Positions 2,966 to 50,871 of a stretch of 64,000 nucleotides of DNA are shown here, one piece after another. The DNA lies in NCBI RefSeq assembly GCF_056746865.1, contig NZ_CM163382.1; one strand, written 5' to 3'. The position numbers and the translations under genes are program-made. How positions within the stretch are numbered: position 1 is the stretch's first letter; every line of letters begins with the position of its first letter. A model generated the notes under the pieces. That model ran no database searches and had not been told where the DNA came from. It saw only the letters and a list, made by a program, of their open reading frames with translations.

Positions 2966-3634
2966 TTAGTTTTCCTCATTCGCGACCAGCATATAGCCAA
3001 ATCCGCGCACGGTGCGGATACGGGCTTTGCCCACTTTGTCGCGCAGATTGTGGATATGCACTTCCAGGGTGTTAGTCGAGGGTTCATTGTCCCAGTTATA
3101 GATGTCGTTGTAGAGAATTTCCCGATGCACCGGACTGCCTGCTTTGAGCATTAACCGTGACAGCAGAGCATATTCTTTGGGCGTCAGAATCAACTCTTCA
3201 CCGCCCATCCATACCTGACGGCGACCCATATTCAGCGTCAGATTGCCAACAATCAGCTCACTTTCGCCCTGATTATTATGGCGTCGTAGCAGGGCGCGGA
3301 TACGGGCGTGTAACTCTTCCAGCGCAAAAGGCTTCACCAGATAGTCATCGGCACCGACATCCAGCCCGGCGATTTTGTCGGTCAGCGTATCGCGAGCGGT
3401 GAGGATCAGTACCGGCAGGGTGTATTTTTTCTGCCGGATACGGGCGAGAAAATGCAGTCCATCTTCGTCGGGTAACCCTAAATCCAGTACCACCAGGCTG
3501 TAATGACCGGCCTCAAGGCTTTGTTCCGCCATCCGCGCGGTTGTCACGCCATCGCACGCGTAGCCTTCGGTTTGCGCCGCCAGAATCAATCCCTGCAATA
3601 ACAGCGTATCGTCTTCAACAATCAGAATTTTCAT
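2966..3634 (-). CDS. basR: Response regulator BasR/PmrA (OmpR family)
   Basis: 222-aa [19 protein letters not shown]..., receiver plus winged-helix; directly upstream of basS. Confidence 0.95.
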
Positions 3635-5274
3635 TCACTCACTCTCCTGCAAGTTTGCAGAATATCATCCGCAGCCTGGTAATACTTCGTCTCAACGCCA
3701 GTTAATCCCAATAGCGTGGAGAATAAATTATCTTGTGAATAGTGTTGCGTTTGCGCCTGTTTTTGCAGGCAGTTCTGGTCAACCTGATACCGTTTTTGAT
3801 AATCCTCCGACAGCCACAGCAGCATTGGCACCTGTTTTTGGCTATCCGGGGCGATGGCATAAGGCAGACCGTGCAGATAGATGCCATTTTCACCTAACGA
3901 TTCACCGTGGTCAGAAAGATAAACCAGGCTGGTGGTAAATTTATCCTGATGTTCTTTCAGCAGATTAATCGCTTTATCAACAATATAGTCGACGTAAACC
4001 AGCGTGTTGTCGTAAGTGTTCACCAGTTGCTCTTTGGTACAGGTCTGGATCTCGTTAGTGTCGCAGGTTGGGGTAAATTTCCTGAACTGCGGCGGATAGC
4101 GGTTGTAATAGGTCGGACCGTGGCTGCCGATGGTGTGTAAGACAATCACGCCATCACCCTGTAGGTTATTGATGTACTCTTCCAGCCCGTGAAACAGCAC
4201 TTCGTCATAGCATTCGCCGTTGATGCACTGACCAGGCAGATTCAGCGCGGTGACGTTCTGGTGAGGCACGCGGTCGCAGGCACCTTTACAGCCGCCATCG
4301 TTGTCATTCCACAGCACGTTGATGCCCGCTCGCTGAATGATATCCAGCACGCCTTCCTGGTGCTGTGCCAGCTCTTCTTTGTAATGCTCACGCGGCATAT
4401 CCGAGAACATGCACGGTACTGAAACTGCCGTTGCCGTGCCGCAAGATGCGGTATTAGGGAAATAGACCACGTTATCTTTCGCCAGCCGCGGGTTAGTTTC
4501 ACGCGGGTAGCCGTTGAGGGAGAAGTTCTCCGCCCGCGAGGTTTCGCCGACAATCAGGATGGTCAAATTTTTACGTGTCTCGTTCTGCATTAATGGATTG
4601 CGGTGCGCGTCTTCTCCAATTCGCACCAGCGGCAGATTTGCCAGTCGCTGATGGGAGTACCATGACCAGCTGGCAACAATGCTATTAGAGGGGCTTAAGG
4701 ACTTCACCAGCTCTTTGTTATTGCGGAACAATGAGGCGTAGTCTTTATAAAACAGTGCGGCGACCAGCAAAATCAGCAGTACAGAAACCAGAATATTGGC
4801 TCCACGGAAAAGAACACTGCGCAGGCGCGAGGTGGCTGGTTTGATTTTAATCCAGCAGGCAATCAGCGCAGCAAGCACGCCGCTGAATCCCAGCGTTAAT
4901 AACATTTGCGGTGTCATCAACGCATAACTTTCTGCCGGAGTGGTATCAATAATATTGGCTATCATCGAGCGGTCGATGACGATGCCGTAAGTCATTATGA
5001 AATATTGTGCAGCTGCGCCGACCAGAATAAACAGGCAGGCCAGCGGTCGATTAAGCCATAAGAAAGAGCTTAGTGTCAGGACAATATTAATCACGCTGAA
5101 GGCGACGACCGGCATCGACAAGAAAACCAGTACGTTATGCAGCGAGTCCAGCGGCAGCGCCTGCAACACCTGTTTAAAAAAGGCAATATTCAGGCAGATA
5201 GAGATATAAAAAGCGGCCAACAATAGCCAGGCGAGTAAATTCAAAGAGGGTCTTTTTAGTAGGCGCTTCAACAT
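3631..5274 (-). CDS. eptA: Lipid A phosphoethanolamine transferase EptA (PmrC)
   Basis: ORF 3631..5319; start trimmed to [14 protein letters not shown] to match recalled 547-aa EptA; 4-bp overlap with basR (operon). Confidence 0.93.
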
Positions 5275-7948: not shown

Positions 7949-10216
7949 TTACGCTTTCACACACATAACGTGGTAAATACCGTCAATAATTTCTGTCCCT
8001 TCTGTTTCGTGTTCAAACCCAGGGAAATGATGGTCCCAGGATTGCAGCGAGCGTAAATAACTTACTTGCGGACTGTTTTTATCGCCGAAGTTTTCACCAG
8101 ACAGCAGCATCGGGATTCCTGGCGGATACGGGATAACTGAGTTTGCCGCGATGCGTCCTGGCAGATTTTCAATGGATACCAGTTCGACATTGTTGTCGAC
8201 AATCGCGTTGTACGCTTCACGTGGGGTGATTTCCGCCACCGGCAGGCCGGAATAGGCTTCGTTCAACCGTGCGCCAGGGTTGTTTTCTTTCAGCCAGGCA
8301 AACATGGTGTCACCCAGATCGTGAATCCCCATGTTCGCGTAAGTGTCAGGATATTGTTCAACAAGTTCCGGCATCACCTGCGCCAGCGGGGTGTTGGCGT
8401 CATAGTGGCGTTTGAAGGAGCAAAGGGTGTTAACCAGAGTCCCCCATTTCCCACGGGTCACGCCCATAGAGAACAGGAACATAATCTGGAAGTCAGTGGT
8501 ACGGGTAGGCACAATGCCGTGGCGACCAAGCCAGGCTGTGACCAGCGCCGCCGGAACACCGGTTTCTTCCAGTTCACCATCTTCACCCATTCCCGGAGCA
8601 AGGATGCTGACTTTAATCGGGTCGAGCATACTCCAGTTATCCGGAATATCTTTGAAGCCGTGCCAGCTTTCGCCCGGATGCATGACCCAGCAGTCCTGAA
8701 CGGTGGTCAGCAGTTTGGTTGGTGCGTCAGCAAAGTCATAGGTTTTGCCGGTTTGTGGGTCGGTGACGACTTCTTTGTTCCACGGTTTGAAGAACCAGCT
8801 ACCGTCAGCGGTGAACTCTTTATACAGCCGCGCCATCGCCTGACGGAAATCAACCGCTTCGTCGATCACTTCCTGCGTCAGTGACAGGCCGCTGTTGCCG
8901 TCCATCATGGACACCGCCACGTCGTTGGATGCGCAGATGGCATACAGCGGGGAGGTGGTGGCATGCATCATGTAGGCCTGGTTGAAGCGGGAGAAGTTAA
9001 TCGCCCCACGACCTTCACGTACATGAATATAAGAGGCCTGTGACAGCGCATTCAGCAGTTTGTGGGTGGAGTGGGTGGCGAAAACGGTAGGACCGTTGTG
9101 ATCGCCAGGTTCGCCGCGCATGGCATAGTGATCGGCATAGATCGGGTTGAAACGTGCATAGCCGTACCAGGCTTCGTCAAAGTGCAGACGATCGGAGGTT
9201 TTTTCCAGCAGATCCTGCGCTTCTTTAGCGTTATAACACACGCCGTCATAGGTGCAGTTGGTCACCACGCAGTAAGACGGTTTTTGCCCGGCTTTGTCTT
9301 TAGTCAGCGGGCTTTCACTGATTTTCTTCTGCAAGGTTTCAGGTTGCATTTCCTGCGGATAGATTGGCCCGATAATGCCGTAGCGGTTGCGGCTTGGCAC
9401 CATGTAGACCGGTTTCGCGCCTGTCAGCATCAAGCCTTGTTCGATGGATTTATGGCAGTTACGGTCAACGACCACGACATCGTTATCGGTCATGCAAGCC
9501 TGCATGATGGTGCGGTTAGAGCCGGAAGTACCGACGACTACCGACCAGGAGCGATCGGCACCAAATACGCGTGCGGCATATTTTTCGCTTTCGCCAAATG
9601 CGCCAGTATGGTCAAGCAAAGAACCGAGGGAAGTGCGTTCGATGCCCATGTCGGTGCGGAACAGATTTTCACCATAGTAGTCATGGTAGAAACGTCCGGC
9701 GGGTGTTTTAGTAAAACCAACGCCGCCCTGGTGGCCAGGTGCTGCCCAGGAATATTCATGGATGTCGCTATATTTCATCAGCGCGCTGAACAGTGGCGGC
9801 AACAGCTGCTGGCGGTAGCGGGTCATCGCGGCAACGGCGCGTCCGGCGATAAAGTCGGCGGTATCTTCCAGAATCCAGGCGAATTCATCGACAAGCTCCA
9901 GCAGATCCCGGTCCATTGCGGCGAGGGCTTTTTCCCGATCGCCCAACAGGAAGACCGGCACGTTTTGTTGGCGCTCATGAAGCTTACCGATCAATTGTCT
10001 GACGTTTTGATGTTCGTCCGGATGTTCCATTTGATAGCTGAACATCAGGCAGTCAATGGCTTCGTTTGAAGAGAGAATGGCAAAACCATCATCAAAGGAG
10101 GTGGATTTAATCACGGTAACATTTTGCTGGCTTAAAGCATCTGCCAGACGCTCAACGGCGTTACCGACCCAGGTGTCTTGATGGAGAAACTCGCTTTCAA
10201 CAATTAATACTTTCAT
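7949..10216 (-). CDS. adiA: Biodegradative arginine decarboxylase AdiA
   Basis: 756-aa ORF (MKVLIVESEF...), PLP fold-type I decarboxylase; paralogous to cadA in same window. Confidence 0.95.
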   Translation of the reverse strand: MKVLIVESEFLHQDTWVGNAVERLADALSQQNVTVIKSTSFDDGFAILSSNEAIDCLMFSYQMEHPDEHQNVRQLIGKLHERQQNVPVFLLGDREKALAAMDRDLLELVDEFAWILEDTADFIAGRAVAAMTRYRQQLLPPLFSALMKYSDIHEYSWAAPGHQGGVGFTKTPAGRFYHDYYGENLFRTDMGIERTSLGSLLDHTGAFGESEKYAARVFGADRSWSVVVGTSGSNRTIMQACMTDNDVVVVDRNCHKSIEQGLMLTGAKPVYMVPSRNRYGIIGPIYPQEMQPETLQKKISESPLTKDKAGQKPSYCVVTNCTYDGVCYNAKEAQDLLEKTSDRLHFDEAWYGYARFNPIYADHYAMRGEPGDHNGPTVFATHSTHKLLNALSQASYIHVREGRGAINFSRFNQAYMMHATTSPLYAICASNDVAVSMMDGNSGLSLTQEVIDEAVDFRQAMARLYKEFTADGSWFFKPWNKEVVTDPQTGKTYDFADAPTKLLTTVQDCWVMHPGESWHGFKDIPDNWSMLDPIKVSILAPGMGEDGELEETGVPAALVTAWLGRHGIVPTRTTDFQIMFLFSMGVTRGKWGTLVNTLCSFKRHYDANTPLAQVMPELVEQYPDTYANMGIHDLGDTMFAWLKENNPGARLNEAYSGLPVAEITPREAYNAIVDNNVELVSIENLPGRIAANSVIPYPPGIPMLLSGENFGDKNSPQVSYLRSLQSWDHHFPGFEHETEGTEIIDGIYHVMCVKA

Positions 10217-46321: not shown

Positions 46322-46833
46322 TCAACGAGGTTTTCTGTCTTTTCGTCGGTCATTCAGCATCATTAAACGGGTCTCTGCCTCTTTCTGTTCCTGTGGTGTC
46401 ACTTCCCCGCACGGCTGACCGTTCAGGTTGTAACGGGCGCCACCTGCTATTAACGCACGGTAATAGCGCGGAGACTGCACATAAGACGCCACTGCTGCAT
46501 GTAATGTACCAGCGCCAAACGCCAGTTCTCGGATGGCGATATCCTGTATCAGGTCGTCAGGTATCCCCACTTTAAGTGGTTTTGTTTTTTTCCCGGTTGA
46601 ATGACTCAGGCCAGAGTTCCACAAGACGAATAATGCGCTTACGGTTTTTGCTCTGGCGTTTTGTCATGTCGCCACGGTGTTTTATCAGCAGGTTTCTGTT
46701 TATCGTTCAACTGTGGTATCTGGTCACCGGCCTTCATTTTGTATGCTGTGTCCGTTTTATCCTGCAGCGGCGTTGCCGGTGATTTACTGAAAATACCCTG
46801 CGGTTTACGGTTAATGGTCAGAGTTACCATCAA
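46322..46833 (-). pseudogene. Two consecutive ORFs (64 aa and 100 aa) in different frames, possibly one disrupted gene
   Basis: ORFs 46639..46833 and 46322..46624 on the same strand separated by 14 bp with a frame change; no family recognised. Confidence 0.3.
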
Positions 46834-47188
46834 TTTTGTTACCTCGCGCTGTCAATGGAAGTAGTACCTCATCCGATATCTGAAAATGTTTTCCGGTGGA
46901 TGTTACAGCGAATTTCATGTAAGACATGTTGTTGTCGGTATTGTTCAGTACTGTGCGTTGTGAGCGTATTCGTTATCAGACAGAGGGGCAGGGAACAAAT
47001 GGCGTAAACGGACATCTCAGTGCCTGAGAAACAGTACAGGTCAGGCCATCATGGCCTGCAAACAGAGCCCTGGCGACCCCGTGGCCGAAAACGAAACAAT
47101 AACCCGCGCGCAGTGCGAGGAATCCGGATGTGAAGCAATCAGCAGGTAATATTAATGGCAGGACCAGCAGGTTCTTTAAACAAACGAA

Positions 47189-47951
47189 GGTGGTGACTCC
47201 AATTAGTAGAACATATATTTTTCGATAAAGGCACCGATGACTTTTTCATGAAGTTCTACAGAGCGCGAGAAACAGATAGTTCTGCGGGCCAGACGTTTGA
47301 TTCGGGTTCTCAGAGGTAGATGTTGCGCTCAATGCGCTGAGTAAAAATCTTACCAGTCAGATGCTTCTCCTTCGGTAACTCTCTGGTGTAACTACCCCAT
47401 TCGTCAGTGGTCAACATACCGATGGTAAAAGGGCAAGCAGCGCCAGCAATTCACGACAGGTTTAATCAGTCCGTAGGCCAAAAGTGTAGGCCAGAACGCC
47501 ACCAGTTTTCGTGTTGTACGTGTACCAGAGCCAGTGCTGTCGCGCTTTACTGCCGACAAAACTCCATTGCTCATCAAGTTCGCAGATGAGTGCCATATCA
47601 GCATGAGCGACCGGGTATGACGTTATTCTTCGTGGCGAGAGTTTTTTAAAGTCCGGATGACAGTATTAATGCCGATTTTCAGCGTACGGGCAGTATCGCG
47701 AACTCCGGCACCGTTGAAAGCCATTTCAGTGATTTGCTCTTTAACTCCCGGTTTACGGGCCTCGTAACGGTAAGTGAGCTGAAGCACTCGATGACAGTCA
47801 CGGCAGCGAAATCGATCATGTCCTTTGGGTTCTTCCCGTGACGGTAAACCTGAACGGACTGGCAACAGGAGCAATGAAGGTTAACTGTGACCATGAAAGA
47901 ACCTTAAAAGTGGCTATTATACTCCTAATTCAACTAATTGGAGTCATTACC
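47189..47951 (-). mobile_element. IS1-family insertion sequence (divergent isoform), insB apparently degenerate
   Basis: Terminal inverted repeats ggtggtgactccaatt (47189-47204) and ggtaatgactccaatt (rc of 47936-47951); length 763 bp; insA intact; conserved TTAAAAAAC frameshift motif at insA end; InsB-like translation needs at least two further frame changes. Confidence 0.75.
47623..47874 (-). CDS. insA: IS1-family InsA (zinc-finger/HTH transposition regulator)
   Basis: 83-aa ORF with CxxC…CxxC zinc finger and C-terminal HTH resembling IS1 InsA (…GINTVIRTLKNS…). Confidence 0.8.
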   Translation of the reverse strand: MLLLPVRSGLPSREEPKGHDRFRCRDCHRVLQLTYRYEARKPGVKEQITEMAFNGAGVRDTARTLKIGINTVIRTLKNSRHEE

Positions 47952-49329
47952 GTATTCATAATGGATTAGGTTCAGCAGTTGCTGAAGTGCTTGTAGAAAC
48001 TTGTCCTGTGCCCATGCGTCGGGTGGGGGTTAAAGAGCGGTATGGCCAGGTTGAAACTCAGGACTTTTTACAGAGAGAGTACGGGTTAACCGCGCAAGCT
48101 ATTGTGGCGGCAGCCAGAGAGCTATTGTAATTCATGGAGTTTGTTTACCATTCTGTTTTTCTTAAAAGTGAGTGTCTGTGCGGTCACTAAACTCGGTAAT
48201 AAAGCAGTTCATTGCAGGATAAGAAGCGTTTGGTTGTGTCGTTTTACCGTAAGAACCGACCGCCGTATGTATCCATTAAGCCAGTATTGGTAACGTAGGT
48301 GCCCACCTTTTCAAACTGGTGGGCGCCTGTTATGGAGCAAAAACATTATCCGCAGAACCCCGCAGATCATTTTCAAATGAGTTAAACTTCAAATGGTTAA
48401 ACTGGCTTTGCAACCAGGAGCCTCTGTTGCCCGTATTGCCCGGGAACACGATATCAATGATAACCTCCTGTTCAAATGGCTCAGACTCTGGCAGAACGTA
48501 AGGTAAAGGGAGATGAAAAAGGCAATAGCAGAACTGAGTGACAGTGAAACCATTCTGGCGTACAGGGTTGGATGGTGAAACTGATAAAAAAACCCTCTGA
48601 AAATTCTGTCAGAGGGTGTAGTCAAAAATGGTAGATATTTACGATGCAGTAATGCTTTCACTCCGGTAATTAATTTCCGTGATTAACTGCTTTCGATCAA
48701 TAAAGGAATTGCAAAAGTGTGATCTTGTTCACGACATCGTGGATGATAATATGCCTGATGTCTGAATCCGGAAACAGTGCTCTGGCGGGTTTCATGTGAA
48801 GTTGACGGATAAAAAATCCGCACGACCAGACAGACGTGCGGTTTACGAAATTCGTAACAAGAGGCTTTTCTACGGATCACGTGGTGCGTGCCACGTGAAA
48901 TTTTTGTAGCGCAAAATGTGCAATGTGTAAATACAAGGAAGGAAAAAAGTTAAATTGGTAGAAGTCCATGCCTGCCACATGTACGTCTGCATTCCTCGTT
49001 TTGAACAGAATTCTCACCAGACATCGTGAATTTCTCATTCAATCATCAGAGATATTAACCAGGATTTTTATTGTTTTGTGATATCAGCAGTGCAGGTATA
49101 CAGACGTTAAAGTAATCAGGTTTATTATAACCACCTTTACAAAGTTGTATATGTTTATAATTTAATGATTTTAATGCCAGTCGTTTTCTGCTGCTTAAAT
49201 TGAGGTCGCATATTATACACAATAATATTCTTAGCATTATTAAATTAATAAGAGAGGATTCTTATCACTGTATTTTTGCTCCGCACTACCGTTCTGGCTG
49301 GTGAAGTAATAATACAGGAGAATAACAGA

Positions 49330-50871
49330 ATGCTTAAAAGACGTGATGCTTTTTTAAAGAAAAGCGCGCTGGCAGTGAGTGTGGCCCTGCTGCTCTCGGC
49401 TCAGGCTCAGGCTGTTTTGACAGGGCCTGTTGATGGTAATTCTTCCAGCTTACTGATTGGAGAAAACTCTTTTATTACGAATTTAACTGGTACAGTTAAT
49501 AACACTTTCCTTTTGGGAGGTGGCGCTTTTAACCTGGATTCACCAGGAAGTCTTCAGTTTGGCTCTTTTTCGGAAGTGTATAATTCTCCACACAGTGTCA
49601 CCCTGGGAAGGGATGCCGGTCAGGCTGAGTCAAAATATGGTGTTGCCATAGGTAAGAGCGCTGAGGTATTTAATTCACAGCATAGTGTTGCTATTGGGGG
49701 ATGGGCTGGAATAGAAAATTCTTCAGGCTCTGTAGCTCTGGGCCATGGCTCACAGGTGTCGGGAGAAAATAACGTGGTATCTGTTGGTGCCGGGCCTGAG
49801 GGATATGGAAAGAGTGTCAAAGGAGCACCGGAAACCCGCCGGATTATAAATGTGTCTGATGGTATCAATAACACAGATGCAGCGACGGTAGGGCAACTGA
49901 ATGAACGATTTGATGATGCACAGGTCTTTTTGTTGCAGACGAATGAAAGAATTGACGAGACAGATAAACGTCTTTCAACAGTTCATGCTGAACTCAGCAG
50001 GGATATTATTGCAGGCACATCGGCAGCGGTGACGTATACAGATGTAACAGCGCTTGCACTTCAGGATGAGATAAAGGATGGGACGAACAAAGTACGTGAT
50101 GAGTTGAAATCACAGGGAGACAGTCTGCGTGGTGAGATAGGCGGTGTATACAGAGATGCCCGTGCTCATACTGACAGTCAGGTCACAGCAGTACGTGATG
50201 AACTGAAGGCAGAGGGAGACAGTCTGCGCGGTGAGATAGGCGGTGTATACAGAGATGCCCGTGCTCATACTGACAGTCAGGTCACAGCAGTACGTGATGA
50301 ACTCAGCAGGGATATTATTGCAGGCACATCGGCAGCGGTGGCGTATACGGATGCATCTTCTCTTGCTCTTCAGGATGAAATAAAAGAAAAAGCGGATGAA
50401 ACAGTTCAGGTTTCCCGGGCTTATACAGATAAAAGTGTACGGGATGCCCGTAAAGAAGCGAAAAGCCAGGCAGAACATCTCAGCGATGTGCTTGTGAAGA
50501 ACAGGGCGCAGACGGATGCAGCAATAGCCTCAAATACAGCAGCGATAAGGAATAACAGTCATCGTCTGGATTTGACGGAAGCCTGGCAGAAGATGGCGAC
50601 AGAGAGAATGAATAATATGCAGGAGCAGATTAAAGAGAACCGGAAGGAGTTAAGGGAGAGTGCAGCCCAGAGCGCGGCACTGGCCGGTCTTTTCCAGCCA
50701 TACAGTGTTGGAAAATTTAACGCGACAGCAGCCGTTGGTGGTTACCGTGATGAGCAGGCCATTGCGGTGGGCGTGGGCTACCGTTTCACAGAGAATGTGG
50801 CAGGAAAAGTTGCAGTTGCTGCAGGTGGGTCATCCGCATCGTGGAATGCTGGTGTGAATTTTGAGTTCTGA
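49330..50871 (+). CDS. Trimeric autotransporter adhesin (YadA-like C-terminal anchor) with repeat-containing coiled-coil stalk
   Basis: ORF 49276..50871 trimmed to [28 protein letters not shown] (signal peptide); YadA-type head repeats (SVAIG/ VSVGAG), coiled-coil stalk, C-terminal beta-barrel anchor ending …AGVNFEF. Confidence 0.8.
50115..50312 (+). repeat. Tandem 99-bp (33-aa) direct duplication inside the adhesin stalk
   Basis: Units beginning gggagacagtctgcg at 50115 and 50214, encoding [30 protein letters not shown] twice; flanked by a second, more distant repeat pair ([12 protein letters not shown]…LALQDEIK). Confidence 0.8.

Follow-up and report, generated by a model that had tools for sequence, protein, structure and literature searches.

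The 763-bp segment at positions 47189–47951 of the window (the whole analysed stretch of DNA, 64,000 nucleotides) is a real IS1-family element that belongs to the IS1N-like branch. Very probably it is a mutationally dead, fixed copy that lies at the site of an IS-associated deletion and decayed after the loss of 5,284 bp. The element and its ends are as follows.

47189–47951, minus strand: whole IS1-family element (IS1N-like branch), 763 bp, with the insA end (IRL) at 47951
47929–47951, minus strand: left terminal inverted repeat (IRL), GGTAATGACTCCAATTAGTTGAA, found by repeat and IS1-end pattern searches
47189–47211, plus strand: right terminal inverted repeat (IRR), GGTGGTGACTCCAATTAGTAGAA, found by the same searches

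The inverted repeats and the family membership proposed in the original prediction are supported by the ends as well as by the coding capacity. IRL and IRR (23 nt each) are 87% complementary and can be aligned with the ends of IS1A and IS1N; the size of the element and the form of its termini are those of the family (~770 bp, imperfect terminal repeats of ~23–30 bp starting with GGT(G/A)(A/G)TG). A degenerate IS1-type end pattern has three matches in the window, compared with 0.07 expected by chance: both ends of the element and, with three mismatches, positions 49435–49457. This plus-strand 23-mer (GGTAATTCTTCCAGCTTACTGAT) is identical to the IS1A left end at 19 of 23 positions; it was rejected as a third IS1 end and treated as a chance match, since it falls within the coding sequence of a YadA-like adhesin (gene start at 49330), toward the 5' end, and no IS1 sequence follows. 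Rfam and tRNA scans of the window gave no match at or near the element. The sole Rfam match in the window is a full-length one to the enterobacterial STnc630 sRNA (RF02052) at 1731–1896 on the plus strand (181 bits, E = 5e-37).

Three-frame translation of the element gives an InsA-like start (MVTVNLHCSCCQSVQVYRHGKN), the remainder of InsA in another frame (GHDRFRCRDCH...RTLKNSRHEE*) and, in the last pieces, InsB-like segments scattered over all three frames. Four point repairs of the window copy yield a 231-aa fusion product, which matches the Pfam families Zn_ribbon_InsA (PF03811, E = 1.3e-16) and HTH_Tnp_IS1 (PF12759, E = 1.9e-27) over their full length, although these insA matches, obtained after a one-base repair, show homology only and not integrity. 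The same product matches DDE_Tnp_IS1 (PF03400, E = 3.4e-70) at profile positions 1–131 of 131, as well as the NCBIfam model transpos_IS1 (NF033558) with 248.8 bits (cutoff 100). The full-length Pfam matches and the NCBIfam match of the repaired product thus identify the element as a genuine member of the family: an insA homologue with an N-terminal zinc ribbon and a C-terminal helix-turn-helix (HTH) is present after the one-base repair, and the repaired IS1-type DDE transposase domain retains the DEQW, TDEW, and IERN motifs.

As had been predicted, InsA is highly diverged from the K-12 copies of IS1. The element is 53% identical to K-12 IS1A in nucleotide sequence, and after repair the amino-acid identity is 40.7% for InsA and 42.2% for InsAB'. 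The canonical copies (K-12 IS1A–F, 768 bp) share with it the GGT-starting repeats, the zinc ribbon and HTH of insA, the A6C motif, the DDE-type insB and a length of ~770 bp; they differ from it by this low identity (53% nucleotide, 42% amino acid), and K-12 IS1A and IS1E are active. Considerably closer is IS1N, an iso-IS1 from Shigella dysenteriae Sd197 (CP000034.1, L009:944-1709), with 79.5% nucleotide identity and, after repair, 87% amino-acid identity for InsAB'. IS1N belongs to the same subgroup, carries an identical TTTAAAAAAC and encodes products of 90 and 231 aa, but unlike the window copy it is intact, present in multiple copies and bordered by an 8-bp duplication. By the ISfinder convention, an element takes the same IS name if its identity to the reference entry exceeds ~90% for nucleotides or ~95% for amino acids. 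Because of the 20% nucleotide divergence, the window element would count as an IS distinct from IS1N and not as its isoform.

A 764-bp copy with 92.4% nucleotide identity is fixed between yiiX and an RhsF-type element in ~2,400 E. coli genomes, O157:H7 EDL933 among them (3001–3764 in loci L002 and L003, from E. coli 21AH126 and EDL933). It has the same architecture and is likewise a pseudogene with the same C4 to C3 loss in insB; it differs from the window copy in its locus, in an open insA with a Cys-to-Gly replacement in the zinc ribbon, in the change of DEQW to SQQW, and in a different C-terminal frameshift. PGAP labels it either 'IS1-like element IS1H family transposase' or 'IS1 family transposase, frameshifted', and the identity of the window element to the copy labeled 'IS1H family' is 92–94% at the nucleotide level. 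The label is ambiguous in the literature, as 'IS1H' denotes the insXY element in E. coli W (PMC3032704) and, for K-12 MG1655, a canonical IS1 copy at flhDC that is unrelated (PMC3531124). Copies identical to the window element are annotated by PGAP as 'IS1 family transposase; frameshifted; internal stop'; the feature is ordinary, of a known kind and already annotated in public genomes.

The closest relatives, found by a search of plasmid DNA, are 766-bp copies on pEM148 from Escherichia marmotae HT073016 (97.6% nucleotide identity) and on the Salmonella enterica plasmid pSA20083530.1 (97.0%).

NZ_CP025980.1, 106483–107248 (L015 1501–2266): intact 766-bp copy on pEM148, transposase WP_103194758.1

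Both plasmid copies have the inverted repeats, the A6C site, the gene order, and the stop codon inside IRR in common with the window copy; unlike it, they are 766 bp long with open insA (90 aa) and insAB' (231 aa), and the pEM148 copy is bordered by an 8-bp target-site duplication (TGGTAAGT). InsAB' of pEM148 agrees with the repaired window product at 219 of 232 aligned positions (~95%). A word-indexed protein search returned no full-length relative above 88% identity, and missed this ~95%-identical transposase. The pEM148 copy is apparently active and adjoins a gene for a YopJ/AvrA-family effector. Since the plasmid copies have open insA and insAB' and one of them a target-site duplication, the isoform is a known, still-living member of the IS1N-like branch. 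These intact relatives are closer to the window copy than the yiiX/RhsF-linked one and keep the C4 run, so the C-run loss occurred in parallel in the two pseudogenes. An already-dead common ancestor of both, which would have implied mobilization in trans, was rejected on the same grounds.

The surroundings of the element were compared with the corresponding island of strain 20KM2300.

46322–47188, minus strand: left flank, consisting of a ProQ/FinO-family pseudogene (~46322–46830) and a spacer, colinear with 20KM2300 to the last base before the IS
47954–48130, plus strand: 3' remnant (177 bp) of a transketolase C-subunit gene, abutting IRL at the right edge of the deletion

The 20KM2300 island encodes, in order, a Gp2-like protein, a hypothetical protein, AlpA, a second hypothetical protein and a ProQ/FinO pseudogene, followed by LacI, PTS IIA, IIB, IIC and the N and C subunits of transketolase, and finally an IS66-TnpA fragment and a YadA-like gene. 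Homology on the left continues for 388 bp beyond the ProQ/FinO pseudogene up to the end of the IS, reaching position 3481 of the 20KM2300 locus (L007) exactly at 47188; on the right, the alignment restarts at position 8766, which corresponds exactly to 47952. The element thus stands precisely in place of 5,284 bp with the genes for LacI, PTS IIA/IIB/IIC and transketolase. The original prediction had placed here the right-hand truncation of a Gp2-like/alpA module: a structural breakpoint does exist, whereas the Gp2, AlpA, and ProQ genes are uncut and the missing part is the LacI-PTS-transketolase operon, which serves in sugar utilization. In the vicinity, the ProQ/FinO-family gene (46322–46830, minus strand) is annotated as frameshifted in every relative inspected (LH50-c, PKF11, 673, and 20KM2300); this member of the Gp2/AlpA block looks like an old shared pseudogene, or is possibly a recoded gene. 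The IS66-family TnpA fragment near the element extends over 48254–48503 by DNA match (annotated at ~48319–48494), and an insert of ~1.3 kb at ~50.9–52.25 kb, with a left edge matching IS421, is absent from strain LH50-c.

No target-site duplication of 8–9 bp is present at the window element (left flank ACAAACGAA, right flank GTATTCATA), which is accounted for by the 5,284-bp deletion at the site and concerns the history of this copy rather than its membership in the IS1 family. A simple insertion with a decayed duplication was rejected, as 5,284 bp are missing exactly between the IS ends in comparison with 20KM2300. The locus is a classic footprint of an IS-associated deletion; missing duplications accompanied by IS-adjacent deletions are well documented, and the routes described include intramolecular adjacent deletion, recombination between two copies, and insertion at a break (PMC11708052). 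Two chimeric queries, which joined an IS end either to undeleted DNA from the LacI side or to undeleted transketolase DNA, were used to look for intermediates retaining the IS next to an undeleted neighbor; neither query was covered to 80% or more at any place in 5,426 complete E. coli genomes. Since no intermediate was found, these three routes are indistinguishable and the mechanism is one that we infer. Adjacent deletion through intramolecular transposition is the most likely route, as the variant has turned up at no second locus. Alternatively, two directly repeated copies of the IS, one past the ProQ/FinO pseudogene and the other inside the transketolase gene, might have recombined. Such an event would lead to the same outcome (one IS at the junction, flanks exact to the IS ends and no matching duplication) and is a recognized cause of missing duplications (PMC11708052); nevertheless, an element otherwise confined to a single locus would have had to insert twice, independently and 5.3 kb apart, and no genome with either single insertion was found among the 5,426 complete E. 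coli genomes. This course of events is accordingly less likely than the favored adjacent deletion.

Within the element, both genes are broken by the following lesions.

47830–47894, minus strand: 5' segment of insA (ATG at 47892–47894), MVTVNLHCSCCQSVQVYRHGKN, with the first CxxC of the zinc ribbon
47823–47829, minus strand: insA lesion with respect to intact relatives, one A lost from an A4 run, CCCAAAAGG to CCCAAAGG
47623–47822, minus strand: 3' segment of insA in the shifted frame, with the second CxxC and the HTH, stop codon TAA at 47623–47625
47641–47650, minus strand: TTTAAAAAAC, the A6C programmed -1 frameshift motif of IS1, found at the end of the insA frame
47465–47649, minus strand: segment 1 of insB' in the -1 frame, KLSPRRITSYPVAHADMALICELDEQW...GLRTD, with the first catalytic Asp (DEQW)
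47462–47464, minus strand: in-frame nonsense codon TAA, GAA in intact relatives
47431–47434, minus strand: one-base deletion in a C4 run, GCCCCTTTT to GCCCTTTT, shifting the insB frame
47321–47322, minus strand: one-base deletion, AACAATCT to AACATCT, causing the second shift of the insB frame
47203–47205, minus strand: original insB stop codon TAA, within IRR; IS1A and IS1N have theirs at the same position

The earlier assumption of an intact insA does not hold, as the one-base deletion at 47823–47829 splits the zinc ribbon. It affects codons 23–24, and the frame is lost after codon 24, between the two CxxC pairs. The open reading frame starting with the ATG (47679–47894) is InsA-like over only ~24 residues, while an 83-aa frame with a TTG start (47623–47874) is devoid of the first CxxC; the latter is probably what had been taken for InsA. 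Binding of the IS ends by InsA requires both the zinc finger and the HTH (PMC12428005). The frameshift site at the end of insA is preserved as stated in the original prediction: downstream of the A6C motif, whose function in IS1 is taken from PMC12428005, the DDE (insB) frame is -1 relative to the 3' segment of insA. At only 2.4% divergence from intact relatives, however, the survival of a motif of 10 nt is the default expectation, and its retention does not constitute evidence of ongoing constraint.

The insB frame had been described as interrupted at least twice; there are in fact three interruptions (TAA at 47462–47464 and deletions at 47431–47434 and 47321/47322), the last of them immediately after the catalytic Glu of IERN. 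Three-frame translation and alignment reveal no continuous frame, with one stop codon and two frameshifts. Altogether, the window copy differs from the intact plasmid relatives by three one-base deletions, one nonsense codon, and 17 other substitutions. It contains no open insA and no insAB' reachable by a single -1 slip, and is predicted to encode neither repressor nor transposase under normal decoding. With both insA and insB disrupted, the immobility that had been thought probable is almost certain as far as autonomous movement is concerned; the ends are still good, and a related active transposase could in principle mobilize the element in trans.

Could the broken insA still be read at a low level? 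The deletion leaves a heptamer, C_CCA_AAG, whose phase is X_XXY_YYZ, and slippage by -1 at this site would restore the exact 90-aa InsA with both CxxC pairs and the HTH; heptamers of the V_VVA_AAR type are prone to shifting in E. coli (PMC4066793). The resulting protein would be a DNA-binding regulator, repressing, for example, related IS1N-like elements. The heptamer is nonetheless a by-product of the loss of one A from CCCAAAAGG, no stimulatory RNA structure was found downstream of it (z = 0.57), and the substitutions on the window branch look neutral, including P9S and R10C within the zinc ribbon; furthermore, the IS1 promoter has been described as extremely weak (PMC12428005). Such a leaky reading is therefore very improbable. 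If true, C_CCA_AAG and A6C would form two successive -1 sites in one small transcript, and the small amount of InsA repressor so produced might curb related IS1N-like elements of the same cell.

That the element is intact and active, with interruptions due to sequencing or assembly errors in homopolymer runs, can be dismissed almost completely. Each of the three frameshifts does involve the loss of a single base in a short run (A4, C4, and AACAA), as errors in long reads typically do. The nonsense codon, in contrast, is due to a substitution and not to an error in run length; five other independent assemblies, from different countries and hosts, have a 763-bp element at this locus that shares all four lesions and varies at only 3 SNPs; and copies at ≥99% identity occur in ~290 genomes.

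The decayed copy descends from a lineage that for most of its existence was a working gene, given a dN/dS of 0.06 in the comparison of the window copy with IS1N; against the yiiX/RhsF-linked copy the value is 0.31–0.38. Along the branch that leads from the intact plasmid relatives to the window copy, 3 substitutions are synonymous and 9 nonsynonymous, in agreement with the neutral expectation of 23.5% synonymous changes (P = 0.56); the test involves small counts, with 12 substitutions only. These patterns suggest that the copy itself decayed neutrally.

A search of 5,426 complete E. coli genomes retrieved 290 records with copies at ≥99% identity (~5%), while the left junction was found in 289 genomes and the right junction in 291. 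The copy count thus approximates the junction counts, and the signs of transposition displayed by a functional IS1, namely several loci and new insertions, were not seen in this set. The distribution is consistent with one ancestral event whose product was passed on together with the island, and shows no sign of later movement of the variant. In one E. coli genome from chicken (NZ_CP033635.1), the IS-marked deleted junction and the undeleted LacI-side sequence are both present at distant loci (matches at 2639294–2639533 and 5173752–5173871), and this genome seems to carry two versions of the island type.

The compared genomes show directly how the element is built, where its lesions and the deletion breakpoints lie, and that the variant occupies a single locus; the order of events and the deletion mechanism are what we infer. 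An active, pEM148-like element of 766 bp would first have inserted in the genomic island beside the LacI-PTS-transketolase operon. The adjoining 5,284 bp would then have been lost, while the element was still active or through a second copy; IS1-type intramolecular (adjacent-deletion) transposition is the most likely route, leaving the IS exactly at the junction with no duplication. Neutral decay would have followed, with three single bases lost in short runs and one nonsense codon, destroying both insA (the repressor) and insAB' (the transposase). At present, the element would be inactive by itself; ~5% of sequenced E. coli have it as an inherited part of the island.

The finding matters little beyond correct annotation. 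The proper label is an IS1-family pseudogene of the IS1N-like branch with insA and insB both disrupted, and the 177-bp transketolase fragment next to it is the stump of an operon removed by the IS-associated 5.3-kb deletion. Because the variant is confined to a single locus and bounded by exact junctions, the element can conveniently serve as a lineage marker for the island type. It also offers a tidy textbook example of a target-site duplication lost through a flanking deletion, followed by decay through homopolymer slippage.
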